Positions 2,899-21,027 of a stretch of 64,000 nt of DNA are shown piece by piece. Every line of letters starts with the position of its first letter. Positions within the stretch are counted from its first letter, which is position 1. The stretch spans positions 104,322 to 168,321 of the forward strand of contig JADBJJ010000008.1 of the NCBI GenBank assembly GCA_014874475.1, written 5' to 3'. The notes under the pieces were generated by a model that worked only from the letters and a program-made list of their open reading frames with translations, was not told where the DNA came from and ran no database searches. The stretch is from Chloroflexota bacterium. Its GTDB lineage: Bacteria; Chloroflexota; Anaerolineae; B4-G1; DUEL01. Both the position numbers and the translations under genes were made by a program.

Positions 2899-2917
2899 AG
2901 GAGTGCTTCAGCGCCAG

Positions 2918-2954
2918 AAGTGCCTGGCATCTGAAAAGTGCCAGGCACTTTTAC
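2918..2954 (+). terminator. rho-independent-type hairpin terminator after etfA
   Basis: Perfect 12-bp inverted repeat AAGTGCCTGGCA / TGCCAGGCACTT with a 9-nt loop, followed by TT(ACCC)TTAAAAA. Located 20 nt after the etfA stop. Also contains copy 1 of the recurring GTGCCWGGC..AAAAGTG motif. Confidence 0.6.
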
Positions 2955-2965
2955 CCTTAAAAAGT

Positions 2966-3850
2966 ATGCGCGCCGACCTTCATATCCACACCGTCGCCTC
3001 CGACGGCACCTGGACGCCCCAGGAGGTAGTGGAACACGTCCGGGCCGCGGATATCGGTCTCTTCGCCGTTGCCGACCACGACACAGTGGAGGGGGCACTG
3101 GCCGTCGCCGACATCGTCCGCCGGACCCCGAACGCCCCTGCCCTCCTCCTGGCCGTAGAAATCTCCACCCTGCTGGATGGCGCGCTTGTCCACATCCTGG
3201 GCTATGGTATCCATCCGGACCACCCGTCGCTGAACGACCTGCTGCGGTCCAACCGGGCCCGGCTGGAATGGGTCAACGATGAGACACTCCGGCGAATGGC
3301 GCGGGCGGGCTACCCGGTGGACCTGGAGGCCTACGCCGCCTATCAGAACGACCCTCGCCGGGGCGGCTGGAAAGGGCTGAATTTTCTGATAGATGCTGGC
3401 CTCTGCCGGGACGTCCAGGATTTCTTTGAGCGCATCTTTGTGGACCCCGTCCGTCCTCCAGAGCCGGAATTCCCCCATCCCGCGGAAGCGGTCGCCCGGA
3501 TTCGGGAGGCCGGCGGGGTGCCGGTCCTGGCCCATCCGGGGGGCAGTCTGAGCCGATTCGGGCCAATAGAGGAGGCCCTGGCCGCCTTCCTGGAATTCGG
3601 CATCGCCGGGGTGGAATGTTACACCCCCTACCACTCCCCGGAGATGACCGCCCGCTGCCAGGCCTTCTGCGCCCGCCACGGCCTGCTGGTGACCGGTGGC
3701 TCCGATTGCCATGGGGAATTTGGCGGCCGCTCACTGGGGATCCCCCCAGTGACTGTGGACGACCTGCGGCTGGGCCCGCTGGAGGGGCTCTTTGTAACCG
3801 CAGAGAACGCAGAGGACATAGGGAAAAGTCAAAAAACACGAAGGACATGA
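2966..3850 (+). CDS. PHP-domain metal-dependent phosphoesterase
   Basis: MRADLHIHTVASDGT... is the PHP N-terminal His motif. Start placed at the ATG after the terminator hairpin; the ORF track starts at a GTG at 2903 that overlaps the hairpin. Confidence 0.75.
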   Translation: MRADLHIHTVASDGTWTPQEVVEHVRAADIGLFAVADHDTVEGALAVADIVRRTPNAPALLLAVEISTLLDGALVHILGYGIHPDHPSLNDLLRSNRARLEWVNDETLRRMARAGYPVDLEAYAAYQNDPRRGGWKGLNFLIDAGLCRDVQDFFERIFVDPVRPPEPEFPHPAEAVARIREAGGVPVLAHPGGSLSRFGPIEEALAAFLEFGIAGVECYTPYHSPEMTARCQAFCARHGLLVTGGSDCHGEFGGRSLGIPPVTVDDLRLGPLEGLFVTAENAEDIGKSQKTRRT

Positions 3851-5650: not shown

Positions 5651-7657
5651 ATGAAAACCGCAGATTTGATCCTCACCGGTGGCGTGGTCGTCACTATGAA
5701 CGACCGGTACGACGTCTGGGAGCCGGGTGCGGTGGCGGTCCGAGAGGGAGCCATCGTCGCGGTGGGACCAGCGGAGGAGGTGGAGCGGGAGTGGACGGCG
5801 CGCCAGGTGGTGAATTGCTCCGGCCACGCCGTCATCCCCGGCCTCATCAACGCCCATACCCACGCCCCGATGACCCTGGTGCGCGGCCTGGCCGACGACC
5901 TGCGCCTGGATGTCTGGCTCGTCGGCTATATGATGCCCGTGGAGCGGGAGTTCGTTCGCCCCGACTTCTGCTGGCTGGGCACCCAACTGGCCTGCGCAGA
6001 GATGATCCGCTCCGGCGTTACTTGTTTCGGCGATATGTACTACTACGAAGAGGCCGTCGCCGACGCCGCCGCCCAGGTCGGTATGCGGGCAGTCTGCGCT
6101 CAGTCCGTCCTGAAATTCCCCACTCCCGACGCGGCCAGTTACGATGAGGGACTGCGCCTGGCGGAGTCCTTCATCGGGCGCTGGCGGGGCCACCACCTCA
6201 TCGTCCCTGCGCTGGGCCCCCACGCCGCCTACACCGCTACCGCTGAGATGCTCCAGGAGTGCGCGCGCCTGGCCCAGGCCTACGACGTCCCCATCCACAT
6301 CCACGTGGCCGAGACCGCGCTGGAGGTCCAGGAGCACCGGGCCGAATACGGTATGCCCATCGTCCCCTGGATCAAAAAGCAGGGCCTGTTAGAGGCCAGG
6401 ACTACCGCCGTCCACTGTGTCCACCTGGATGAGGGCGAGATGCACACTCTGCTCCACCACGGGACAGGCGTGGCCCACAACCCCACCAGCAATCTGAAAC
6501 TAGCCAGCGGCATCGCGCCGGTGGCCCGGATGCTGGCCCTGGGCCTGAACGTGGGCATTGGCACCGACGGCCCTGCCAGCAACAACGACCTGGATATGTT
6601 TGAGGAACTGCGGCTGGCGGCAATCCTAGCCAAAGGCATCACCGCCGACCCGACGGCCCTGCCCGCCCGCCAGGCGCTGGCTATGGCGACCATCATGGGC
6701 GCCCGAGCCCTGCACATCGCTCACCTGACCGGCTCGCTGGAAGTCGGCAAACGGGCCGACATCGCCGTCGTCAGCCTGGAGGACCTGCACCTGACCCCCC
6801 GCTTCCACCGGGACCCCGAAAGTATCTATTCCCTGCTGGTCTACGCAGCCAAGAGCCAAGACGTGCGCCACGTCCTCTGCGACGGCCAGTGGCTTATGCG
6901 GGACCGGGTTCTTTTGACGGTGGACCCCGAGGGACTGTGTACTCAGGCCCTGGAGATTGCCCGTAAAATTGACTATTTCATCAACCTTCGGGAGGAGAGC
7001 GTCCTCAGCAAACTGGTCGCCATCGGCGGCGTGGCCCGGGAGAAAACCTTTGAGGTTCAGGTTAAGGTCCACCTGACCGATGACGCAGATGTCCTGGCGG
7101 TGCTGACGGACGGAACCCTTCCCATCGTCAAACAGTCCCGGCGACGGCAATACGACACATACTTCCTATTTGATGACCCCGACCGCAGCCGCCTGCGCTA
7201 TCGGGAAGAGGAGATCCTGAACGATGAGGATCAGGTCGCCGACGTCCGTTACCGGCTCACACTGACGAGCGATACGAAGGAGCGGGAGTTTCCCCATTCT
7301 GTGCTGCTCTCCCGTTCCCGGTTTGACGCACCCGCAACCCGCAGTCTGCGCTTCTACCGGGAGTACTTCAAGCCGGCGGCGGAGTGGGAAGTCCACAAAG
7401 AGCGGCGGCGGTACCACATCCGCTACGGCGGGACCGACTTCGCGGTCAACCTGGACCGGGTGACCCATCCGGCGCTCCCCGCCTACTTCCTGGAACTGAA
7501 GAGCCGTACCTGGTCGGCGCAGGACGCGGAGCGGAAAGCGATGCTCATCGGCGAACTGCTGGAACTCTTCGGCGTCGGGGAGCAGGAACTGGTGCGGCGG
7601 GAGTACCTGGACCTGGCGCGGGAGCATAAAGAGTCAGAAGGACCAGCGACTTCATAA
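5651..7657 (+). CDS. MtaD/COG0402-family amidohydrolase deaminase (approx aa 1-435) fused to a C-terminal CYTH-like domain (approx aa 445-668)
   Basis: N-terminal part has the classic MTA/SAH-deaminase metal-binding motifs (HAVIPGLINAHTHAPMTL, HVAE, DG...NN). C-terminal approx 220 aa shows CYTH-like landmarks (FEVQVKV, YFLFDD...RLRYREEE, YRLTLTSDTKEREF, RYHIRYGG..NLDRV, FLELK). Strong RBS. Confidence 0.8.
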   Translation: MKTADLILTGGVVVTMNDRYDVWEPGAVAVREGAIVAVGPAEEVEREWTARQVVNCSGHAVIPGLINAHTHAPMTLVRGLADDLRLDVWLVGYMMPVEREFVRPDFCWLGTQLACAEMIRSGVTCFGDMYYYEEAVADAAAQVGMRAVCAQSVLKFPTPDAASYDEGLRLAESFIGRWRGHHLIVPALGPHAAYTATAEMLQECARLAQAYDVPIHIHVAETALEVQEHRAEYGMPIVPWIKKQGLLEARTTAVHCVHLDEGEMHTLLHHGTGVAHNPTSNLKLASGIAPVARMLALGLNVGIGTDGPASNNDLDMFEELRLAAILAKGITADPTALPARQALAMATIMGARALHIAHLTGSLEVGKRADIAVVSLEDLHLTPRFHRDPESIYSLLVYAAKSQDVRHVLCDGQWLMRDRVLLTVDPEGLCTQALEIARKIDYFINLREESVLSKLVAIGGVAREKTFEVQVKVHLTDDADVLAVLTDGTLPIVKQSRRRQYDTYFLFDDPDRSRLRYREEEILNDEDQVADVRYRLTLTSDTKEREFPHSVLLSRSRFDAPATRSLRFYREYFKPAAEWEVHKERRRYHIRYGGTDFAVNLDRVTHPALPAYFLELKSRTWSAQDAERKAMLIGELLELFGVGEQELVRREYLDLAREHKESEGPATS

Positions 7658-7672
7658 TCGCTGATCCTTCCA

Positions 7673-10264
7673 GTGGTTCCGTTTTTCTGGCCCCCTATGG
7701 ACCCTGTCCTCTCCCTTCTGGCCCGCCTGCGGGCGGACCCCGATTTGATGCGCAATGTGACGGCCTGGGAGCAATTGCCGGCCCGGACGGCCCGCACCGC
7801 TCCCTGGCCCGTCGCCCTGGCCTCCCGGCTGGTAGAGGTCGCGCGCGGTGCAGGCATAGAGGCTCCATACACCCACCAGGCCGAGGCCGTCACCGCCGCG
7901 CTGGACGGCCACAACGTCGTCCTGGCGACCGCCGCCGCCTCTGGCAAGTCTCTGGCAATCCATCTCCCCGTTCTGCAAACCCTCTTGACCGACCCGACGG
8001 CCACTGCTATCTACCTCTTCCCCACCAAAGCCCTGGCTCACGACCAACTGGCGACCCTGCGGCCGCTGCTGATGCCTTTCCCGTCCATCGTCGCCGCCGC
8101 CTACGACGGCGATACCCCCACCAGCCAGCGGACCACCATCCGCCAGAAGGCGCGTCTGCTGGTGACCAATCCGGATATGCTCCACATGGGCATTCTGCCC
8201 TACCACACCCGCTGGGCCCGCTTCCTCTCTGGCCTGCGCTGGGTCGTCCTGGACGAACTCCACGTCTACCACGGGGTGTTTGGGAGCCACGTCGCCAACG
8301 TCCTGCGGAGACTGCGCCGGGTCTGTCGTTTCTACGGCGCCGCTCCCCATTTCCTCTGCGCCTCCGCCACCATCGCCAACCCCCGGGGACTGGCCGAACG
8401 GCTGTTGGAGGCAGAGGTCTATCCGGTGGTAGAGGACGGGGCACCGCGCGGGGAGAAACATGTCCTCATCTATAACCCGCCCCTGGTGGACCCGGCTCTG
8501 GGCTTGCGTCGTCCGCTTCTCCTGGCCGCGCTGGACATCGCCAGCCACATTCTTCCAGCAGACCTGCAGACCATTTTCTTCGCCCGCTCCCGTCTGAGCA
8601 CCGAAGTCCTTCTGGGCTACCTGCGGGAACGGGCCCCCGCGTGGGGGCAGGACCCCGCCGCCATCCGAGGCTATCGGGGCGGCTACCTGCCCTCCCAGCG
8701 GCGGGAGATTGAACAGGGTCTGCGAGAAGGGACGGTCCGGGCTGTCGTCGCCACCAATGCGCTGGAACTGGGCGTGGATATCGGGCAGATGGCCGCCTGC
8801 GTCATGGTCGGCTATCCCGGCTCCGTCGCCAGCACCTGGCAGCAAGCCGGCCGGGCCGGACGCCGGGCCGGGGCATCGCTGGTCGTCCTGATCGCCGGGT
8901 CCTCGCCGCTGGACCAGTACCTGGCGACCCATCCGGAGTTCCTCTTCGGCCGACCGATGGAGGAAGCCCACTTGAATCCCGATAACCCGGCCGTCCTGGT
9001 TGACCACGTCGCCTGCGCCGCGTACGAGTTGCCCTTTGAGCCCGGCGAGTCCTTCGGGACCCTGCCGGACGTGGGGGGGTGGCTCTGTCTGCTGGAGGAG
9101 ACGGGCGACCTGCACCGCTCGGACGGGCGGTACATATGGGTCGGGGAGAGGGAGCCCGCGCGGGCGGTCAACCTGCGCACCAGCACCCCCGATGTGGTAG
9201 TCATTCAGGATGTCAGCACGGACCCGCCGCAAGTCATCGGTGAGATAGACCGCGCCAGCGCGCCCATACTGGTCTATCCAGGCGCCATCTACCTGCACGA
9301 GGCCGACATGTACCGGGTGGAGAACCTGGACTGGGACGCGGGGCTGGCGCAGGTGCGGGCGGTAGAGGTGGACTACTATACCCGCGCCAGCGCAATCACA
9401 GAAGTCCAGGTTCTGGAGACACTGGGGAGCGCCAGCCGCCAGGCCGGTATGGACTGGGCCGTCTCCTGGGGGGTTATAGAGGTCACCCGCCGTGTCACCG
9501 GTTACCGGCAGATTCGCCGCTACACCCACGAGGTACTGGGCGGGGAGGAGGTAGACCTGCCGGAGGGGCGTATGGAGACGGTGGGAGTCTGGATAGACCT
9601 GGGGCCGGAACTGGTGGAGCAATTGCAGGAGGAACAGGTGCTCCACCTGCCCACTCACTATGGCCCGGACTGGCCGGCGCAGCGGGCGGCGGCGCTGGCC
9701 CGGGACGGCTACCGCTGTCGCCACTGCGGAGCGCCGGCGCAGGAGGGACGTCCGCTGGAGGTTCACCATCGGGTCCCTTTCGCCGTCTTTGGTTACATTC
9801 CGGGGAAGAACGACTTTTACCGTCTGGCGAACCGGCTGGAGAACCTCATCACCCTCTGCCCGACCTGCCACCGGCAGGTGGAGCGAGCCCGCGGGGCCCG
9901 TAGCGCGCTCTCCGGCCTGGCCTACTTGCTGCGTGGCCTGGCGCCGCTTTACGTCCTCTGTGCGCCGGGGGACCTGGAGACGGTGGTGGAGCCGCGTACG
10001 TGGGAGACCCACCTCCCCCGGGTGACCGTGTACGACCGGGTGCCGGGCGGGGCGGGCCTTTCAGCGCGCCTCTACGAGTTGCTGACGGAGGGGACAGCGC
10101 TTCTGGAGGCTGCGCGGGAGCAGGTGGCAACCTGTCCATGTGCGGACGGATGCCCGGCCTGCGTGGGGCCGGTGGGGGAGCAGGAAGAGGGGACCAAAGA
10201 GCGGACGCGCCGGCTGCTGGAGAAGATGCTGGCCCTGGCGGGTTTACCCAGAGCGGCCAGGTAG
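7673..10264 (+). CDS. DEAD/DEAH-box helicase of the MrfA/YprA (DUF1998) family with an HNH-type motif in the C-terminal domain
   Basis: Helicase motifs I (AASGKS), II (DELH), III (SAT), VI (QQAGRAGRR). C-terminus has CRHC..HH..N..CPTCH and a second CPCADGCPAC cluster. Start is a GTG at 7673; an alternative ATG is at 7697. Confidence 0.85.
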   Translation: MVPFFWPPMDPVLSLLARLRADPDLMRNVTAWEQLPARTARTAPWPVALASRLVEVARGAGIEAPYTHQAEAVTAALDGHNVVLATAAASGKSLAIHLPVLQTLLTDPTATAIYLFPTKALAHDQLATLRPLLMPFPSIVAAAYDGDTPTSQRTTIRQKARLLVTNPDMLHMGILPYHTRWARFLSGLRWVVLDELHVYHGVFGSHVANVLRRLRRVCRFYGAAPHFLCASATIANPRGLAERLLEAEVYPVVEDGAPRGEKHVLIYNPPLVDPALGLRRPLLLAALDIASHILPADLQTIFFARSRLSTEVLLGYLRERAPAWGQDPAAIRGYRGGYLPSQRREIEQGLREGTVRAVVATNALELGVDIGQMAACVMVGYPGSVASTWQQAGRAGRRAGASLVVLIAGSSPLDQYLATHPEFLFGRPMEEAHLNPDNPAVLVDHVACAAYELPFEPGESFGTLPDVGGWLCLLEETGDLHRSDGRYIWVGEREPARAVNLRTSTPDVVVIQDVSTDPPQVIGEIDRASAPILVYPGAIYLHEADMYRVENLDWDAGLAQVRAVEVDYYTRASAITEVQVLETLGSASRQAGMDWAVSWGVIEVTRRVTGYRQIRRYTHEVLGGEEVDLPEGRMETVGVWIDLGPELVEQLQEEQVLHLPTHYGPDWPAQRAAALARDGYRCRHCGAPAQEGRPLEVHHRVPFAVFGYIPGKNDFYRLANRLENLITLCPTCHRQVERARGARSALSGLAYLLRGLAPLYVLCAPGDLETVVEPRTWETHLPRVTVYDRVPGGAGLSARLYELLTEGTALLEAAREQVATCPCADGCPACVGPVGEQEEGTKERTRRLLEKMLALAGLPRAAR

Positions 10265-12897: not shown

Positions 12898-15800
12898 TCA
12901 CTCCGCCCCCACCACCTCGTAGATTCGCACCCCTTCCCGGTCATAGACGACCCGCAGAAGTCCCCGAACAACCATCCCATCAAACTTGGAGAGCCCGGCA
13001 GCATCATAATAGAGGCGTTCGTAAGGGCCCACATAGACGTAGCGAACTCCGTACTGGCGCAGAATCGCCAGCGCCCGGTCTGGGTCGGGGGTGTTGTAGC
13101 ACTCCCGTACATACCAGTGGCGCCGATCTACCTCCTCTCCCATTCCCTGCTGCACTTCGTGCCAGCGCCAGCCAACGACCGCAGGCAGGCCAGTGTAGAT
13201 AGAAATGCGGCTCTGCCAGAGGTACTCCCGCTCCCCCAGCCCCTCCAGGATCACCGGCGAACCCTGAACATTCTCCAGTAACCAGAGAATCCCCCCATAA
13301 TCCGGCCCCAGGTCTACCTCCCCCCGCACATCCCTGGTACGGCTATAGCGGATGTAGGCCATACCGTCCAGCGTGGGGCCGGTGGCATGGGTGAACCGGT
13401 CCCTTATCTTGGCCGGGATGCTCATGATCGGGAAGAGAGCCGTGGCGAATATGATGGCCCCCATTGCCACCCACCAGAGGCGCCGGATGTCGGCGGGCCA
13501 GGCGTCGCTGACCCTGGCCAACTCCACCAGCGCGGCCGCCGCACTCACTGAGAGCAGAGTCCAGGCCTGGAAGTAGAATTTGAAGACGGTGTTCATCCGA
13601 CCGATGTCCCCCTCCAGCACCAGGACCTCCACGCCCAGGGTCAGCGCCAGAGCCACCGCCATCCAGAACGCAGGCAGGGCGCGGTGTGCGGGGAGCAGAA
13701 AGGCCAGGACGAAAGCAAGGACGCCCATCGGCAGGGCCACCGCGGCCACTGGCACTCCCAGACCGGCGGCCATCAGCCCACAGACCAACGCTCCCCCCAA
13801 CCCGAGGAAAAACAGCGAAAGCCGTCGGCCCGAAAGCACCTGCCAGGTATCCACCACCAGAAGCGCGCCCAGCGGCAGGAGAAACTGGCCCAGCAGCAAG
13901 ATGTAAATGTCCAGCGGCGTGCGGGCATCCGTCCAGAGGCGCATCCGATCGTAGGGAGCGATATAGGCCCGGATGTACGGAAGGAACAGCAACACCGTCA
14001 GCCCGGCCAACAGGAGGGGATAGAGAAGGGCACGCCCCCAATGCCGCTTCACCTCACTCTGCGGCTCGCCCCGAACCAGAGACCAGGCCAGCACGGCCAT
14101 CCCCAGCAGGAGATAGGTGGGGTAGTCCCAGGTATTGGTCGCCCGGAGAGCGCCAATGATGAGAGCGGCCAGTAGCAAAGATAGCCCTCGCGAACTCTTC
14201 TGCGAATGCCCCTGCCGGAATTGCAGGGCCCATTCCACCATCACCACCAGCGCGCAGAGGGTGTACGGCAGGGCCAGAAGGTGAGCGTGCAGGTCGGCAT
14301 AGAGAAATGTGAACGCCGGGAATTCCGTGATCGGACCCACTCCACTGGCATCCGGCGGAATCATCCGGGTGGGATACCAGTAGGGCGTCTCCGGACGGAG
14401 GGGCAGAGGGGCGCCACCCAGGACCATCCCGAAGCCCCTCAGCGCCTGGACCAGCGACTCCAAGCCCGGAATGGTACTCCGGAAAGGGATTTCGCCCGCG
14501 ACCAGCCGGAAACTGTCGTATAGAAGCCGCGCCTCCCCCAGGTTCCCCAAGACCAGAACGAACAGAACAGCAAGAAGGCCCGCGATTTGTGGACGCGCAG
14601 ACACCGCTCTGCTATCGTTTCCTGGCTGGATGCCAGCAACAAGGTTGAAAGCCACAGAGAAAGCCGCTCCCCCCACCAGGGCATAGAAAAGGGCCAGGGC
14701 CAGATTGTAGGCAATGGAGGGCATAATGCCCGCCAGTTTCGCCAGTGTCCCCACCAGGACAAAGCCGAAGTAGTAGTAGTTAACGTAGCCGCCAGCGAAC
14801 CAGGGATTGTAGGGCGGGAACCAGGTGGATTTGATGACGGCGTTCAGATAGGCGAAGTCCATTGGCTTCTCGCCCCCGACCACCGGATGCCAGAGGTCGG
14901 GGTTTTGAGCCCGTACCCAGGCCCAGAAGGCATAGAGGACCAGAAACAGGCCCTCGTACATCAAAAGCAGCCCTCCGGACCGGCGCAGGAAGTCCCGGAA
15001 CTCGCCCCAGCGTCGCCAGACCACCCAGATGCCGGCCATCGCCATCAGGAAAGCACTCAAGGCGATGGTGCCGCGCGTGTTGGGTAGAATCCGCAGGCTG
15101 GCTGCCAACCAGGTTAAGTAGGAGACCGCCAGCAGACCGACCGCGCGGGCAATGCCGTAACCCCGGTCGGTCAGGCGGGGAAGGGCCCGCCAGAGAATAG
15201 GGAAAACCAGCCATCCCAGCCCTCCCGCCACCAGATACCAGACAGCCGCTGCCAAAAACGATGAGCGGTTCAGCGGGCTCCTCAGGTCAAACATCGCCGA
15301 CCAGGTCCCGCCCGCCCGCTGCTGGGCCCAGGTCTGCTCGTCTATGATGGGTCGCCGCTGCGTCTGGGGGCTTCCCCCAGATGGTATGAAAGGAAGAATC
15401 TGCCGCCATATCCGCAGGGTCTCCTGCTTCGGGGTCACCCAGACCACGTGATCCAGCAGGGAGGCCGGCAGCAAGGCCTCCGCTCGCTCCCGCGAGTACG
15501 CGGCCGTTTTGCGGAAGATGAGGACGCGAGGGTGGTCGTAGACGCTAAAGGCCTCCTCCGCTGGAGGGAGAAACACCGAGCGCGGCGCCGCCCGGTACTG
15601 GTACGAGGCCTCCGGAACGGGGAACGGCTCCTCCGTATCCGGGAACTGGAAGGGGCCAAGAGCCGGATAGGAAGTGAAATCGGCCACCAGTTCAAAGCCC
15701 AGTTCCCCGCTGAACAGGGCGCGATAATACGCGATGGTCAGCGGATAACGGGTCGGCAACCGGACAATGGAAGCATAGAGACGGTTGGAGCCGATGATGA

Positions 15801-17526
15801 TGTAATCCGCTTCATCCAGCCAGTTCAGCAGGTCCTCCCGCTTCTGGGGCGTGTCGTCATGGTAGAGTTGCAGAGTGCCGTCGGAACTGGTAGAGAGTCC
15901 CCGGTACATCCCGCCGAAGGGGTCTTTGCCGTCCACCCGCAGCGGGGGTGCCCAGTCCCAGTGCTCCGTCGCCAGGACAGAACCCAGAGGGACGTTCTGA
16001 AAAATCCAGCGGGAGGCCGCGATGCGGGTATGGGGCCGCCGGTAGACGGAGGTGAAGGCCAGAGCCCAGAGCAGGGTCACCAGGAGCAGGATTACAGGGA
16101 GCAAGGTGGTAAGGAACAGAAGGGCTTTCCGCTTCGCTTTGTGCTGGACCACACGCGCACGAGTCCAAATGCGGACCAGGAGCCAGGCTGCCAGGAGGAC
16201 AAAGGCCGGATAGACCGGCAAGAGATAACGGACAGATTTGACCCATTGGGTACCCTGGTAGAGGAAATAGCCGGTGGCCCAGAGCCAGGGGAGGAGGAGA
16301 GGTTCCCTCGCCAGGGCCATTAGCCCCTCCCGCCGCCAGCGGCGAAGCAAATGGGCACCACCCCACCCCCATCCGGCCCAGGCCGCCAGCCCCAGGGGTA
16401 GGCCCAGTCCCCAGAAGACCATGTTGACCCAGGGGAAGAGCAGCGGCAACCGGTTGGTCCACTGATGGCCGGGATAAGTATCCACCGCGCCGGACATCAG
16501 CCCGCGCACCTCAGCCATGTTTTTGAGCCATTGGGGGTTGAAACGCAGTCCGAAGAGGCCGGGGCCCATAAAGGCGTAGGGCTGGGCCAGGCGGAAGGCC
16601 AGGAAGGCCCCCAGGAGCGCACAGGCGCCGAGGAGCACCAGGCGCAGGGCAGCCTGGCGCAGGCATATCGCTCCGCTATCGCTCCGGGGCGCATTCCGAA
16701 CCACACTGGCGAGAGCCGCCAGCCCCACCAGCAGGCCCAGGGGCCAGACGCTGATTTTGCAGGCCATGCCCAGTCCGGTGGTCAGGCCGGCCAGAAGGGC
16801 ATAGATGTACGGATAGGCAGGAGCAAACCTTGCCCCTTCATCGCGGCTTTCAGGATCGGGGGCATGGGAGGGCAGCTCTTGCGGTTGCCCCTTCTCGCGG
16901 CCACTTTGGGCCAGGCAGAGAGCCAAGTAGAGAGTCACTGCGACGAAGAAATTGGCACAAGCGTCCACCGTGTAGAAATGGGATTGCTGGATGGGCAGGA
17001 CAGCCAGCGCATAGAGGGAGGCCGCCAGCAACCCCAGGCCGTCGGAGCGGAGCCGCCGCCCGGCCAAGAAGACAAAAAGGATGCTCCCGGTGTCCAGAAG
17101 GGCCGCCAACAGTCGCCCCAGATGGCGAGCGCCTCCGCCGCTAAAACTCCCCGGCCAGCAGGCCGACGAATTCCCCAGGAGCACGGGGGCCAGCAGGCGG
17201 GCCGGAAGGGAAACCGCCGTCCCGTCCCGGCATCCCCGGTCCAGCGCCTCCCCCACCGCGCGGGTGAGGAACAGGGGCAACGTGCCGTAAACGAAGAACC
17301 CGTATCCGCGGTTGTAGGGGTTCAGCGGAGAGTTGGCCGTATCCAGGTAGAGGGACAGGCGGTTGGGAAGGCTAACCGCCGCCGTCACCTGGCGCAGAAA
17401 CTCCTCATCCGGATGGATGGGCTGCCCTTCACCCCAGCCCAACCCGACCAGACGAAAGGACAGGCCCACCAGCAGAACCGCCAGAAGGAAAAAGGACGTT
17501 TCCCAGCGGGAGTTTCGTTGCTCCAT
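12898..17526 (-). CDS. 1542-aa polytopic membrane protein: N-terminal PMT_2/ArnT-like GT-C glycosyltransferase module fused to a DUF2298 module
   Basis: More than 20 predicted TM helices. N-terminal approx 550 aa resemble dolichyl/undecaprenyl-phosphate-sugar dependent GT-C enzymes. The YYFGFVLVGTLAKLAGI... region matches DUF2298. Confidence 0.8.
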   Translation of the reverse strand: MEQRNSRWETSFFLLAVLLVGLSFRLVGLGWGEGQPIHPDEEFLRQVTAAVSLPNRLSLYLDTANSPLNPYNRGYGFFVYGTLPLFLTRAVGEALDRGCRDGTAVSLPARLLAPVLLGNSSACWPGSFSGGGARHLGRLLAALLDTGSILFVFLAGRRLRSDGLGLLAASLYALAVLPIQQSHFYTVDACANFFVAVTLYLALCLAQSGREKGQPQELPSHAPDPESRDEGARFAPAYPYIYALLAGLTTGLGMACKISVWPLGLLVGLAALASVVRNAPRSDSGAICLRQAALRLVLLGACALLGAFLAFRLAQPYAFMGPGLFGLRFNPQWLKNMAEVRGLMSGAVDTYPGHQWTNRLPLLFPWVNMVFWGLGLPLGLAAWAGWGWGGAHLLRRWRREGLMALAREPLLLPWLWATGYFLYQGTQWVKSVRYLLPVYPAFVLLAAWLLVRIWTRARVVQHKAKRKALLFLTTLLPVILLLVTLLWALAFTSVYRRPHTRIAASRWIFQNVPLGSVLATEHWDWAPPLRVDGKDPFGGMYRGLSTSSDGTLQLYHDDTPQKREDLLNWLDEADYIIIGSNRLYASIVRLPTRYPLTIAYYRALFSGELGFELVADFTSYPALGPFQFPDTEEPFPVPEASYQYRAAPRSVFLPPAEEAFSVYDHPRVLIFRKTAAYSRERAEALLPASLLDHVVWVTPKQETLRIWRQILPFIPSGGSPQTQRRPIIDEQTWAQQRAGGTWSAMFDLRSPLNRSSFLAAAVWYLVAGGLGWLVFPILWRALPRLTDRGYGIARAVGLLAVSYLTWLAASLRILPNTRGTIALSAFLMAMAGIWVVWRRWGEFRDFLRRSGGLLLMYEGLFLVLYAFWAWVRAQNPDLWHPVVGGEKPMDFAYLNAVIKSTWFPPYNPWFAGGYVNYYYFGFVLVGTLAKLAGIMPSIAYNLALALFYALVGGAAFSVAFNLVAGIQPGNDSRAVSARPQIAGLLAVLFVLVLGNLGEARLLYDSFRLVAGEIPFRSTIPGLESLVQALRGFGMVLGGAPLPLRPETPYWYPTRMIPPDASGVGPITEFPAFTFLYADLHAHLLALPYTLCALVVMVEWALQFRQGHSQKSSRGLSLLLAALIIGALRATNTWDYPTYLLLGMAVLAWSLVRGEPQSEVKRHWGRALLYPLLLAGLTVLLFLPYIRAYIAPYDRMRLWTDARTPLDIYILLLGQFLLPLGALLVVDTWQVLSGRRLSLFFLGLGGALVCGLMAAGLGVPVAAVALPMGVLAFVLAFLLPAHRALPAFWMAVALALTLGVEVLVLEGDIGRMNTVFKFYFQAWTLLSVSAAAALVELARVSDAWPADIRRLWWVAMGAIIFATALFPIMSIPAKIRDRFTHATGPTLDGMAYIRYSRTRDVRGEVDLGPDYGGILWLLENVQGSPVILEGLGEREYLWQSRISIYTGLPAVVGWRWHEVQQGMGEEVDRRHWYVRECYNTPDPDRALAILRQYGVRYVYVGPYERLYYDAAGLSKFDGMVVRGLLRVVYDREGVRIYEVVGAE

Positions 17527-17535
17527 AGGGGTCTC

Positions 17536-18138
17536 CTATGGTCCAGGTTTGGCGGTGATGACGACCCAGTAGTGCTGGTACGGGCTGGTGGAGTCATAGG
17601 CGTATCCGATCCCGTACTCCACCTGTTCGGCGAAGAACGGGTGAAAGCCCAGCAGGTGAGTCCGGTGACCCTGGGAACTCATCCACCCATTCCACGCCGC
17701 GCTGGCACTCGGATAGCCCGCCGCAATGGACTCAATGTTGTTGGCTGCCGGAGACGAGTCGTAATAAGAAGGGAGCACATAGCCCGCCTGGCGCACCAGA
17801 TAATTCGGTCCGTATCCCTCTGGGGTCACATGGCTGAAATAGCGGCGGCGGGCCATATCTTCCGCTCGCTCCCGCGCCACCCGTGCCAGAATCGGATGAC
17901 AGGTCAGAGATGGCCGTTTCTGCTCCGGATGCTCTACCATATAGCGGGCAATCTCTGCCTCCTGAGAGCTCAGAGAGCATGCCGGAGATTTGAGGACCAA
18001 CGGCAGATATACTTGAGGGGTCAGGTTCTGGGCCTGTGCCTCTGTCAGGTTGGGACCCAGCAGGAACAGAGAGAGCAGGACAACTCCCACCCCAAGACCG
18101 GTTATCCAGTGAATCCGGTGTGCTCTATGAATCCTCAT
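17536..18138 (-). CDS. CAP (SCP/PR-1-like) domain secreted protein
   Basis: Signal/TM at the N-terminus. CAP motifs (HYWVVITAKP, GHRTHLLG). Confidence 0.7.
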   Translation of the reverse strand: MRIHRAHRIHWITGLGVGVVLLSLFLLGPNLTEAQAQNLTPQVYLPLVLKSPACSLSSQEAEIARYMVEHPEQKRPSLTCHPILARVARERAEDMARRRYFSHVTPEGYGPNYLVRQAGYVLPSYYDSSPAANNIESIAAGYPSASAAWNGWMSSQGHRTHLLGFHPFFAEQVEYGIGYAYDSTSPYQHYWVVITAKPGP

Positions 18139-20129
18139 CCAGAACCCCCAGAACGGTTCGGTTGGATTTCATAAAGGATGAACAGAAGCCGACCGTCCGC
18201 TTCGGAGTAGAAGGGAGTCTCCACACCGTTCGGGAAAGTCTCCCGCAGGAAGTCTAGGTCGGCCATTTTCTCCGCCAGGACGACAAAGAGCGCTCCACCG
18301 GAGAGGTCTATCTCCGGTAGTTCCTCCACAGAAACGTCCTGGCCCGCCACATCCCGTAACCGGAAAGCGATGGCGCCAAAGTCCCAGTACATAAACGGCG
18401 CGCCATTAAAGTAGACCGGCGGGACTTCATCCCGGCCCTCCAGCGCGTCGCAGAGGACGTCGGCAACCTCGGCGGTGGGGTTACCATAAATGCGGCGGGG
18501 GGTGTAAACCTGAAAGTAGAAGCGGAGATTGATAATGGCAATCAGAACCAGCAATAAGGCATATAGAGAGACGTGAAACGGGAAACAGGAACGGTCTTTG
18601 GCCAGGCGGCGGACGGCCTGCAGGGTCTCCGTGATGCCCTGAGCGGTCAGGATCGCCACCACCGGGATGACCCCGACCCCCCGCTGGCTGGACGGCGGGT
18701 TCTCGGTCAGGGTCCAGCCCAGGAGAATGAACGCCCAGAACCAGAGCAGAAGCACTCCTCCGCCAGGCCGCCGGACGCGCCAGAAGGCCACCGTCAACCC
18801 CAGAATGAAAAAGACGCCGGAGACGGGGTCCAGTAAGGGGATACCCGGACGGTACCAGAAAGTGGGGTCCGGAGTGACATTAAAGGCGGAAATGGACTTC
18901 CAGAACTGCTGAAGGAGCAGCGCGGTCGCGCTCTTGCCGGTCAGCGACATCTCCTGCGCCAGCCAGCCAGAGGCGAAGATGCTGACCTGGTTGTAGCGGG
19001 AGAGGAAATCCGCCGGATGGGCGATGTAGTAGAGAGCCAGCGGCCAGAGGGCCAGAGCAAACCCCACCGCCAGAGCGACCAGCCCGCGACCGTGCCGGGC
19101 CAGAAACGCGCCGCCTCCGCCCAGAGCGCGTCCCATCAGATAGAGGCCAACGACGACCGTCATCAGACGGGCACCGAAGTAGGCATACCAGGAGAGGCTC
19201 AACACCACCCCGGCCAGCGCCAGGTCAAGGGGACGGCCATCTCCCTCCAGGCCCCGGAGGAGCAAAAAGAGGACAAGAGGTCCCAGAAAGGCGTCGGCGA
19301 TCTGGTTAGAGGCCAGGCGGCTGAAATGGAGCCCGTAGTGGCCGAAGGCAACCAGGACGGCGGCTCCCCACCCCACCCATTCTCCGCCCAGACGGCGGGC
19401 CAGGAGATAGGTCGCCAGAACGGACGCGGTGCCCGCCAGGGCGAAGAGGGCCCGCGCCCCGGCGACCGTCGCCCCGAAAAGTTTCATCCAGAGCCCGGTG
19501 ACCACGAAGGAGAGGGTGGGAACGCTGTACCAGCCGGTGGCGAAGGGATTGCCCAGAGGCGGGCCCAGCAGGCGCAGCGCCTCCAGAGCCTGAGTGCCCT
19601 CGTCGCCGCCGAAGTTGGCCGGAATGGTATCCAGGGCAATGGCGCGGATCAGGAAGGCAGCCAGGAGCAGGAGGAGCAGAGGAGCAAGTCGCAAAATCGC
19701 ATGTCGCAAGCCGCAGATCACAGGGCGCGGAGTGCGCCGCGCCGGGTGCAGGGGGGCCAGGGCCAGGATGTAAAAGAGCAGGCCAAGGGCCCAGGCCCGC
19801 AGGTAGGGGGAAAAGTCAGCGGCGGGGTCGGCCCGGCGCGCGCCGATGCCCGCCCAGAGAACCAGCAACACGCCGACTCCCAGCAAGGCCGTCCGCAGGG
19901 GATGGGCGGCGGCATCCGCCAGCCACCGCCGATACCAGGCCGGCCGGGAAGGAGAAGCCGTCGGGCGTTCCTGGGCGCGCCGGAGGGCCGCCACCCACAA
20001 AAGCGCCCCCAATGCACAGAAAATGACCCCGTCCCAGACGTATTGGGGGAGTCTGAGGAAGTAGACCTGTCCCAGGACCACCAGCCCTAAGCCCAAGATC
20101 AGCAGGAGCGCGTCTGGCTTCCCTTTCAT
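18135..20129 (-). CDS. GT-C family glycosyltransferase (family 39/83-like, PMT/ArnT-type)
   Basis: Polytopic. N-terminal GGDEGTQA loop motif typical of ArnT/PMT_2. Stop overlaps the CAP gene start (ATGA). Start taken at MKGKPDALLL. Confidence 0.75.
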   Translation of the reverse strand: MKGKPDALLLILGLGLVVLGQVYFLRLPQYVWDGVIFCALGALLWVAALRRAQERPTASPSRPAWYRRWLADAAAHPLRTALLGVGVLLVLWAGIGARRADPAADFSPYLRAWALGLLFYILALAPLHPARRTPRPVICGLRHAILRLAPLLLLLLAAFLIRAIALDTIPANFGGDEGTQALEALRLLGPPLGNPFATGWYSVPTLSFVVTGLWMKLFGATVAGARALFALAGTASVLATYLLARRLGGEWVGWGAAVLVAFGHYGLHFSRLASNQIADAFLGPLVLFLLLRGLEGDGRPLDLALAGVVLSLSWYAYFGARLMTVVVGLYLMGRALGGGGAFLARHGRGLVALAVGFALALWPLALYYIAHPADFLSRYNQVSIFASGWLAQEMSLTGKSATALLLQQFWKSISAFNVTPDPTFWYRPGIPLLDPVSGVFFILGLTVAFWRVRRPGGGVLLLWFWAFILLGWTLTENPPSSQRGVGVIPVVAILTAQGITETLQAVRRLAKDRSCFPFHVSLYALLLVLIAIINLRFYFQVYTPRRIYGNPTAEVADVLCDALEGRDEVPPVYFNGAPFMYWDFGAIAFRLRDVAGQDVSVEELPEIDLSGGALFVVLAEKMADLDFLRETFPNGVETPFYSEADGRLLFILYEIQPNRSGGSG

Positions 20130-20139
20130 TTCGGTGACC

Positions 20140-21027
20140 TCATGCAGGCAGAGAATCGGAGGCCCGGGCCAGGCAGCCTGCGCTACCATCCAGTTCCCGG
20201 GAAGCCGTGATGAAGAGGCATCCACCTTTTTCGGGAGGTGGCTCTTCGTAGAAAGGCCGCACGATTCGCTCCGTCACCCAGAGATTGAAGCAAGAAGGCC
20301 AAATCACCCAGCGGCCGGTCAGTTTCTTCGCCACCAGCGAAGGAAGGCCGAAATAATGTCCCCACTCCACCGCCGCCAGCGCGCGGGGAGAGAGATACGG
20401 GTGCGCGTCCAGCAGGTGCAGGCCAGCCCACTCCAGCCGCGCCTTCCAGCCCTCCACTCCGTCGTAGTAATAATGGCGGGAGATGCGATGAAAGAACCGC
20501 CGATAGAGATTTCCCAGGGGACGAAGTCCCAACCGGTCCAGCGCCTGTCCGATGGAAAGCAGCGCCAGGAAATCGGGGCCGGGGACGGAGAAGTAGAACC
20601 GTCCGCCCGGGCGCAGGACCCGGGCCACCTCCCGCAGCACCGGCCCCACATCCGGGATATGCTCCAGGACACAATTGCTGACAACCGTCCCGAAAACAGC
20701 GTCCGGAAAGGGCAGGCGGGCACCATCGGCTTGAAGCAACAGCCGGTACGCTCCACGCCGCTGCGCCTCCCATAACGGCCGGGTATCGGGGTCCAGGCCG
20801 ACGTCGGGCGGGCGGGGAAGGGCCACCGCGCCGAAGTGCCCGTCCCCGCAGCCCAAGTCCAGCACCGGCTCCGGAAAGGGCAGAGATATGTAAAAACGGG
20901 CCTCGGTGGCCCGTAACAGCGCCCGGAAAGCGGGCAAGTCCTTCAGATGAAGCCAGAGGAGGTCTGGAAAGGATAATTTTGTTTTTGTGACGGCTTCACC
21001 GCCACAAAAACAAAACGCTTTACCCAT
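20140..21027 (-). CDS. class I SAM-dependent methyltransferase
   Basis: VLDLGCGDGHF (motif I) and LRPGGRFYFSVP (post-II). Methyltransf_11-like. Confidence 0.8.
   Translation of the reverse strand: MGKAFCFCGGEAVTKTKLSFPDLLWLHLKDLPAFRALLRATEARFYISLPFPEPVLDLGCGDGHFGAVALPRPPDVGLDPDTRPLWEAQRRGAYRLLLQADGARLPFPDAVFGTVVSNCVLEHIPDVGPVLREVARVLRPGGRFYFSVPGPDFLALLSIGQALDRLGLRPLGNLYRRFFHRISRHYYYDGVEGWKARLEWAGLHLLDAHPYLSPRALAAVEWGHYFGLPSLVAKKLTGRWVIWPSCFNLWVTERIVRPFYEEPPPEKGGCLFITASRELDGSAGCLARASDSLPA

Follow-up and report, generated by a model that had tools for sequence, protein, structure and literature searches.

CYTH/triphosphate-tunnel (TTM) domains are ancient and ubiquitous, and their physiological roles are largely unclear. 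The closest described counterparts of the protein considered here are AtTTM1 and AtTTM2, in which a uridine-cytidine-kinase-like domain is followed by a helical linker and a TTM domain carrying Gln in the place of Glu (PMC9582702). No metal was seen in this TTM domain, which is termed catalytically inactive and has kept the basic lining and the plug-helix tyrosine; the proposal is that it binds some phosphorylated metabolite and regulates the kinase, and a weak pyrophosphatase activity remains despite the lost glutamates (PMC9582702). We describe a bacterial gene with a similar layout, found in a stretch of 64,000 nucleotides from a Chloroflexota bacterium (contig JADBJJ010000008.1), referred to below as the window. 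Its 668-residue product joins an N-terminal amidohydrolase deaminase resembling MtaD to a C-terminal CYTH domain, in which two of the four glutamates of the canonical metal-site motifs are replaced by glutamine and lysine.

In the canonical enzyme SaTTM, E5, E7, and E137 are the ligands of the two metal ions (PMC8233210). The first Glu of the ExE motif on strand 8 is the universal metal-1 ligand, whereas the second Glu holds metal 2, an ion that puts the attacking water in place and that TTMs and thiamine triphosphatases need for catalysis; the DxY motif serves water placement (PMC8233210). The enzymes of the superfamily use one or two metals (PMC9582702), and in TTM triphosphatases and thiamine triphosphatases the RxR pair contacts the beta and gamma phosphates. 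Class IV adenylate cyclases are recognised by an HFxxxxExExK motif, by a small residue (V/C/L) replacing the first Arg of RxR, and by E-x-A on strand 8, with Ala at the second ExE position (PMC8233210). A survey of CYTH sequence space found CHAD and phosphoribulokinase domains as the only partners in multidomain clusters, and the earlier fusions cited there are those with HD, exopolyphosphatase, and nucleotidyl-kinase domains (PMC8233210). Our literature search found no paper on a fusion of CYTH with an amidohydrolase or with MtaD.

The C-terminal 222 residues of the fusion protein match the Pfam CYTH family (Pfam ID PF01928) with an E value of 2.8e-7 and 31 bits, above the gathering score of 23.2, and the same Pfam model matches 14 of 25 diverse family members. 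The AlphaFold2 model of the domain (42 sequences) is confident, with a predicted local distance difference test (pLDDT) score of 91.2 and a predicted template modelling (pTM) score of 0.87, and folds into eight long strands and helices in the expected order. The top Foldseek match in the PDB is PH1819 (PDB ID 2EEN; E 1.4e-8, TM 0.79, probability 1.00), and further matches include 1YEM, AtTTM3, the Yersinia class IV cyclase (YpAC-IV), SaTTM, thiamine triphosphatase, and YgiF. The Foldseek probability is 1.0 for 2EEN, 1YEM, 5A67, 3N0Z, and 7NS9, all top matches have the TTM fold, and AtTTM1 is represented among the matches by its inactive TTM domain (PDB ID 7Z67; E 2.3e-6). A sequence search of the PDB with the domain alone gave one spurious weak match, and the family profile gave none at E values up to 10; since the domain is too divergent for such searches, the fold was assigned through Pfam, AlphaFold2, and Foldseek. 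When 1.84 billion cluster representatives were scanned exhaustively with phmmer, 237 proteins were returned, practically all of the same CYTH subfamily, which indicates that this subfamily is compact and strongly diverged. The C-terminal domain is a divergent member of the CYTH/TTM fold. The initial annotation, made from the letters of the window, had proposed a CYTH domain of about 220 amino acids fused to an MtaD deaminase, and both the assignment and the C-terminal placement are borne out; only its start at position 6990 was one base out of frame, as codon 447 begins at 6989.

The N-terminal domain is MtaD-like with an intact active site. The sequence of the MTA/SAH (5'-methylthioadenosine/S-adenosylhomocysteine) deaminase of PDB ID 4F0R aligns end to end with the family profile (E 1.9e-126), and Tm0936 aligns more weakly; this profile comes from an alignment dominated by deaminase columns and was used for the N-terminal domain only. 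Of 81 sequences, which here and below are the window and 80 species-representative genomes, 80 to 81 keep H69, H71, H218, E221, H255, and D306 at the metal and catalytic positions, so that the HxH, H, H, and D metal ligands of amidohydrolases and the catalytic Glu of HxxE are all in place. All NCBIfam equivalog cut-offs were missed, with the best score for PRK09045 (479 against a cut-off of 540) and a score of 291 against 779 for the MTA/SAH deaminase model. From the sequence we infer a specificity of the MTA/SAH type.

The motif residues of the CYTH domain were mapped onto the sequences of YpAC-IV, a Vibrio homologue, and NeuTTM taken from the PDB, using hhalign and HMMER as two independent alignments, which gave the same residue mapping. 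With default settings, hhalign aligned only the C-terminal half of YpAC-IV and produced a spurious short match to NeuTTM; with a lowered mact, YpAC-IV was aligned over its full length at a formal probability of 2.9%, the template consisting of two sequences. We accepted this low-probability mapping because HMMER, the secondary structure of the model, and the published residues of YpCyaB all agree with it: it reproduces exactly S59, V61, and R63, to which the work on SaTTM draws particular attention (PMC8233210), and it fits the strands of the model.

Both alignments place E-V-Q-V-K on ExExK and E-L-K on the strand-8 ExE, exactly the motif readings given by the initial annotation, and Q470 and K617 stand in the place of glutamates. 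Strands 1 and 8 each have a single inward-facing acidic residue in any register, and the canonical motifs therefore cannot be intact. The annotation was thus right to call the motifs non-canonical, but not to treat E-x-E as a universal acidic motif, as class IV cyclases carry E-x-A. Gln470 and Lys617 are the equivalents of E7 and E137 of SaTTM, and E468 and E615 are the retained metal-1 glutamates. Among the replaced residues are thus a ligand of the two-metal cluster and, at the second position of ExE, the Glu published as the metal-2 ligand.

The other motifs of a TTM triphosphatase or thiamine triphosphatase are present, namely RxR (R516/R518), KxR (K583/R585), and DxY (D502/Y504). Compared with the canonical enzymes, the domain has the extra arginines R514, R587, and R619, of which R514 stands where thiamine triphosphatases have W/Y and other members a small residue. 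The canonical strand-4 Lys is apparently absent, with an invariant Thr537 nearby, in a region where the hhalign alignment is gapped and uncertain. The net charge of the domain is about -3, and K and R make up 15.5% of its residues as against 10.6% in two canonical enzymes; with the basic residues clustered at conserved positions of a nearly neutral domain, this composition fits a specific pocket.

Conservation of the substituted residues is close to complete. In domain numbering, which begins at protein residue 447 (protein residue = domain residue + 446), E22 and Q24 of the ExExK site are found in 81/81 sequences and K26 in 79/81, and at the ExE site E169 and K171 are found in 80/81, R173 in 79/81, and W175 in 81/81. 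The residues R70, R72, K137, R139, R141, D56, Y58, and D156 are present in all 81 sequences and R68 in 76, and Y206 (Y652 of the protein), invariant in the family alignments, is at least 95% conserved across the 81 genomes. A fused relative with only 29% identity in the CYTH domain (P0183) still carries E-M-Q-I-K and E-V-K. The near-invariance of Gln and Lys and their retention in so distant a relative indicate that the substitutions at Q470 and K617 were fixed under selection and are not a sign of decay. The CYTH domain evolves slightly faster than the deaminase, with mean pairwise identities of 0.54 and 0.61 (r = 0.77). The helix L-R-F-Y-R-E-Y-F, which is followed by x-P, is absent from the canonical CYTH motifs named in PMC8233210, and in domain numbering its residues R121, F122, Y123, E125, Y126, and F127 each reach a conservation of at least 95%, which hints at a protein contact surface, perhaps between the domains or in a dimer. 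The positions of all features are collected in Table 1.

Table 1. Features of the fusion gene, with positions in the window and equivalent residues of YpAC-IV
Feature	Residues	Position	Strand	Equivalence or basis
Whole gene, MtaD-like deaminase + CYTH fusion	668 amino acids	5651..7657	+	Open reading frame list; end includes the TAA stop
Amidohydrolase deaminase domain, MTA/SAH-deaminase-like	1-445	5651..6985	+	Pfam Amidohydro_1, E 6.9e-74
Long terminal deaminase helix and conserved short helix E-S-V-L-S-K-L-x-A-I-G-G into the tunnel domain	426-459	6926..7027	+	Full-length model
CYTH/triphosphate-tunnel (TTM) domain	447-668 (222 amino acids)	6989..7654	+	Pfam, AlphaFold2, Foldseek
E-V-Q-V-K, strand 1, replaces ExExK	E468, Q470, K472	7052..7066	+	YpAC-IV E10/E12/K14
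DxY motif D-T-Y	D502, Y504	7154..7162	+	YpAC-IV D43/Y45; 81/81
R-L-R-Y-R, RxR phosphate clamp and extra Arg	R514, R516, R518	7190..7204	+	YpAC-IV S59/V61/R63
Helix L-R-F-Y-R-E-Y-F	566-573 (domain 120-127 in the model)	7346..7369	+	Most conserved stretch of the CYTH domain
K-E-R-R-R, KxR phosphate pair and extra Arg	K583, R585, R587	7397..7411	+	K583/R585 on YpAC-IV K111/R113
N-L-D, strand 7	N600, D602	7448..7456	+	D602 on YpAC-IV D126
E-L-K-S-R-T-W, strand 8, replaces ExE	E615, K617, R619, W621	7493..7513	+	YpAC-IV E136/A138
C-terminal helix, likely plug helix	Invariant Y652	7604..7636	+	YpAC-IV R-S-Y-R-Q-L-L segment

In the full-length AlphaFold2 model (mean pLDDT 87.7, pTM 0.71), the two domains are connected by helices at residues 426-447 and 451-459, of which K8, L9, and G13 in domain numbering are conserved, and the confidence falls to a pLDDT of 66-70 over residues 441-470. 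As the deaminase contributes 445 of the 668 residues, a pTM of 0.71 is about the value that one well-placed large domain would give. Substrate channelling, which the initial annotation had also suggested, finds no support in this model, where the linker is of low confidence and no fixed interface is predicted.

The reading that we prefer is that the CYTH domain is non- or weakly hydrolytic and that it regulates the deaminase by binding a ligand with a (tri)phosphate, by analogy with AtTTM1/2, and we consider the chances for and against it to be evenly balanced. We infer, rather than observe, the loss of hydrolysis, the nature of the ligand, and the regulation of the deaminase. The tunnel would have lost the second, water-activating metal site, with metal 1 possibly kept and Lys617 supplying the charge that normally comes from metal 2. 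It might then bind, without efficient hydrolysis, a tri-, pyro-, or polyphosphate metabolite such as Mg-tripolyphosphate, pyrophosphate, or a nucleoside triphosphate. Ligand binding could tune or localise the deaminase through the helical linker, and the outcome would be a coupling of the salvage of S-adenosylmethionine by-products to the phosphate or energy status. A sensor or binder rather than a phosphatase had been suggested in the initial annotation, and this part is plausible in view of Gln and Lys at the places of E7 and E137, the retained phosphate clamp, and the AtTTM1/2 precedent, whereas the retention of the metal-1 glutamates and DxY speaks for caution.

Several points weigh against this preferred reading. 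The domain has kept the glutamates of metal 1 as well as the DxY water motif, a single metal is enough for Cet1-type TTMs, and AtTTM1/2 themselves show weak pyrophosphatase activity (PMC9582702). The full-length model predicts no confident interface between the domains, which leaves allostery without structural support from modelling. The gene neighbourhood of the fusion offers no functional hint and no operon logic, the PSP1, PIG-L, helicase, GH57, and DUF1028 genes of the window recurring in only 1 to 2 of 80 loci.

The retained residues are also the basis for the strongest alternative, namely that the CYTH domain is an active one-metal, lysine-assisted phosphohydrolase (a tripolyphosphatase or pyrophosphatase) with Lys617 in the electrostatic role of metal 2; two enzyme activities belonging to a single pathway would then be united in the fusion. 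The metal-1 ligands E468 and E615 (the latter in 80/81 sequences) as well as DxY, RxR, and KxR are invariant or nearly so, and the strict invariance of Gln and Lys fits catalytic residues as well as binding ones. The use of one or two metals by TTMs and the activity that AtTTM1/2 retain without the glutamates also agree with this alternative (PMC9582702). On the other hand, TTMs and thiamine triphosphatases are described as needing the second ExE glutamate for their catalysis (PMC8233210), our literature search found no characterised TTM with Lys at that position, and no pathway logic connects the hydrolysis of tripolyphosphate or pyrophosphate with MTA/SAH deamination. We regard an active phosphohydrolase as possible but on the whole improbable.

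A mainly structural domain, serving dimerisation, scaffolding, or localisation (to polyphosphate granules or a partner protein) and sensing no small molecule, appears unlikely. The L-R-F-Y-R-E-Y-F helix and the N-terminal helix E-S-V-L-S-K-L lie outside the canonical motifs (PMC8233210), suggesting protein contacts, and the non-catalytic Mediator Med18/20 folds appear lower in the Foldseek list. A pure scaffold would not need the canonical phosphate-contacting residues, all of which are invariant, and the domain, with its slightly negative net charge, is not globally basic as would be expected for non-specific binding of polyanions.

It is more doubtful still that the deaminase acts on adenine nucleotides (ATP, dATP, Ap4, or adenosine thiamine triphosphate) whose triphosphate is held by the CYTH domain, an arrangement that we consider very unlikely. 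The pairing of an adenine deaminase with a triphosphate clamp invites the idea, and the missed equivalog cut-offs for MTA/SAH and 5'-deoxyadenosine deaminases leave room for another specificity. The family profile nevertheless matches a bona fide MTA/SAH deaminase over its full length, no confident packing of the two domains is predicted, no defence-system deaminase model was matched, and the gene, in its variable context, resembles a vertically inherited housekeeping gene.

Labels in the JGI database on two fragments and the presence of YpAC-IV among the Foldseek matches might suggest a CyaB-like adenylate cyclase of class IV, but this reading is refuted at the motif level and has next to no probability, in line with the initial annotation, as A and R occupy the positions six and five before E468 where HF would stand, the first Arg of RxR (R516) is kept in 81/81 sequences, ExExK is broken, and strand 8 reads E-x-K.

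Returning to the preferred reading, its boldest form would make the Anaerolineae protein a 'pseudo-TTM' switch, in which a metal has been traded for a lysine and a receptor for tripolyphosphate or nucleoside triphosphates gates the deamination of MTA, SAH, or 5'-deoxyadenosine allosterically. We think this form is rather unlikely, but if true it would be the first physiological sensor of free tripolyphosphate and would tie the turnover of S-adenosylmethionine directly, by regulation, to the state of phosphate or energy supply; in a more radical version, the deaminase would have been retargeted to triphosphorylated adenine nucleotides. If the lysine functionally replaces a metal, this would be a metal-to-side-chain substitution in a two-metal enzyme family. 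The literature that we found documents non-catalytic ligand-binding versions of the CYTH/TTM domain in plants only (AtTTM1/2, PMC9582702), and a large bacterial family would offer a tractable soluble system for studying tunnel ligands and the control of partner enzymes.

The fusion is widespread, almost entirely within one phylum. A pattern scan of one genome per species gave at least 600 stretches, of which at least 595 were confirmed, and the corresponding species genomes are nearly all Anaerolineae or other Chloroflexota, with three carrying other labels. The hosts include Anaerolineales, Promineifilaceae, Ardenticatenaceae, Thermoflexales, Caldilineaceae, and Aggregatilineales. The deaminase lies immediately upstream of the CYTH domain and in frame with it in 80/80 loci, and full-length homologues, about 664 residues long and sharing 70-91% identity, number more than 120. 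The nearest relatives are metagenome-assembled Anaerolineae (Chloroflexota), and the best-matching locus (L001) has 92% identity across the CYTH domain. Homologues are publicly labelled 'amidohydrolase', 'CYTH domain-containing protein', or 'MTA/SAH deaminase', and the two JGI fragments 'adenylate cyclase class IV'; the last label and the plain 'amidohydrolase' would need correction.

The most distant fused relative, P0183 (L082 6000-7979), is a K/I/N-rich protein of 659 amino acids. Its gene is preceded by one for a pyridoxal-dependent (tyrosine-type) decarboxylase and runs into the beginning of the next gene downstream, which encodes a PfkB-family kinase. In contrast to the loci of Anaerolineae, this one may be a genuine operon. 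A small genuine clade of standalone proteins of 224-234 amino acids (P0153 and P0388-P0393, on metagenome contigs) belongs to the same CYTH subfamily, and P0153 carries E-L-R-A-K, with Arg for Gln, and E-V-K. Neither of the two known standalone loci has a gene with an amidohydrolase match on record. P0388 lies on a 31.6-kb contig, where its gene comes after that of an 830-residue protein with no Pfam match on record and before the genes of an MscS channel and a GAF-guanylate-cyclase. P0130, which had been taken for a standalone protein, is a frameshifted fused gene. Two further arrangements may be artefacts of assembly or gene calling: in P0103 the CYTH domain stands behind a HemC-like porphobilinogen-deaminase fragment, and in P0094 (L081 50-1045), which starts 50 nucleotides from a contig edge, it stands behind an unrelated, unassigned N-terminal segment of 120 amino acids.

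The fusion gene is preceded by the Shine-Dalgarno sequence AAGGAGG upstream of its ATG. The next gene (7673-10264, + strand) begins 15 nucleotides past the stop and encodes a MrfA/Hrq1-like helicase of 863 amino acids (DEAD, Helicase_C, WHD_HRQ1, and MrfA Zn-binding domains) with an HNH endonuclease domain inserted at residues 682-736. The helicase core has partial matches to the defence models BrxH, SngC, and DruE, and the helicase is found next to the deaminase gene in only 2 of 80 related loci. RdrB of the RADAR system is an ATP deaminase of anti-phage defence; a corresponding defence reading of the fusion protein was rejected, as it matches no PADLOC model.

Elsewhere in the window, which has a G+C content of about 63%, a 315-residue open reading frame (2903-3850, + strand) between the alpha and beta genes of the electron transfer flavoprotein and the gene with the PSP1 domain has no Pfam match at an E value of 0.001 or better. 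Two genes on the minus strand encode a 1,542-residue protein with a DUF2298 membrane domain (12898-17526) and a 696-residue protein with a PMT_2 glycosyltransferase domain (18135-20225), and from about 12 to 22 kb the plus strand shows a strongly positive AT skew of up to 0.33. No Rfam family reaches its gathering score on either strand of the whole 64-kb window.

Among known systems, the deaminase part agrees with the MTA/SAH deaminases of Chromobacterium (Cv1032, PDB ID 4F0R) and Thermotoga (Tm0936, PDB ID 1P1M) end to end over its 445 amino acids and in all metal and catalytic residues. The solved or characterised MtaD enzymes are single-domain proteins of about 406-472 amino acids, whereas the fusion family carries the extra CYTH domain of 222 residues. 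With the canonical TTMs (SaTTM, NeuTTM, CthTTM, AtTTM3, and YgiF) and thiamine triphosphatase, the fusion has in common the fold, DxY, RxR, KxR, the first Glu of both ExExK and ExE, and the plug helix; it differs from them by Gln and Lys in place of the second glutamates, by Arg at the W/Y/small position, and by the extra R141 and R173 (domain numbering). The class IV adenylate cyclases (CyaB and YpAC-IV, PDB IDs 2FJT and 3N0Y) have a similar size and fold, and their second strand-8 position is also non-acidic (Ala), but the fusion lacks the HF motif, has kept the gate-keeper Arg516, has a broken ExExK, and carries Lys instead of Ala.

The closest system remains AtTTM1/AtTTM2 (PDB ID 7Z67), which likewise combines a nucleoside-metabolising enzyme, a helical linker, and a C-terminal TTM domain with replaced metal glutamates. 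The partner there is a P-loop kinase, whereas it is an amidohydrolase deaminase (Amidohydro_1) here, and the hosts are plant and amoebozoan (Viridiplantae and Amoebozoa, cluster 7 of the sequence similarity network) as opposed to bacterial (Chloroflexota). In the fusion, only the metal-2 side is changed (Gln and Lys), with the metal-1 glutamates kept and Lys rather than Gln on strand 8, so that the plant-type inactive pattern of replaced glutamates and retained basic lining is present only in part, in two of the four glutamates. The motif W/YxRxR of AtTTM1/2 corresponds to RxRxR, there is no membrane anchor, and the tight interdomain packing of AtTTM1 is not predicted for the fusion. The fusion is an analogue of the plant-type inactive TTMs and not a member of them. 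A close conceptual precedent thus exists, and what is new is that the partly 'demetallated' TTM domain is bacterial, is fused to a partner of another kind, and bears ExQxK...ExK as its distinctive signature.

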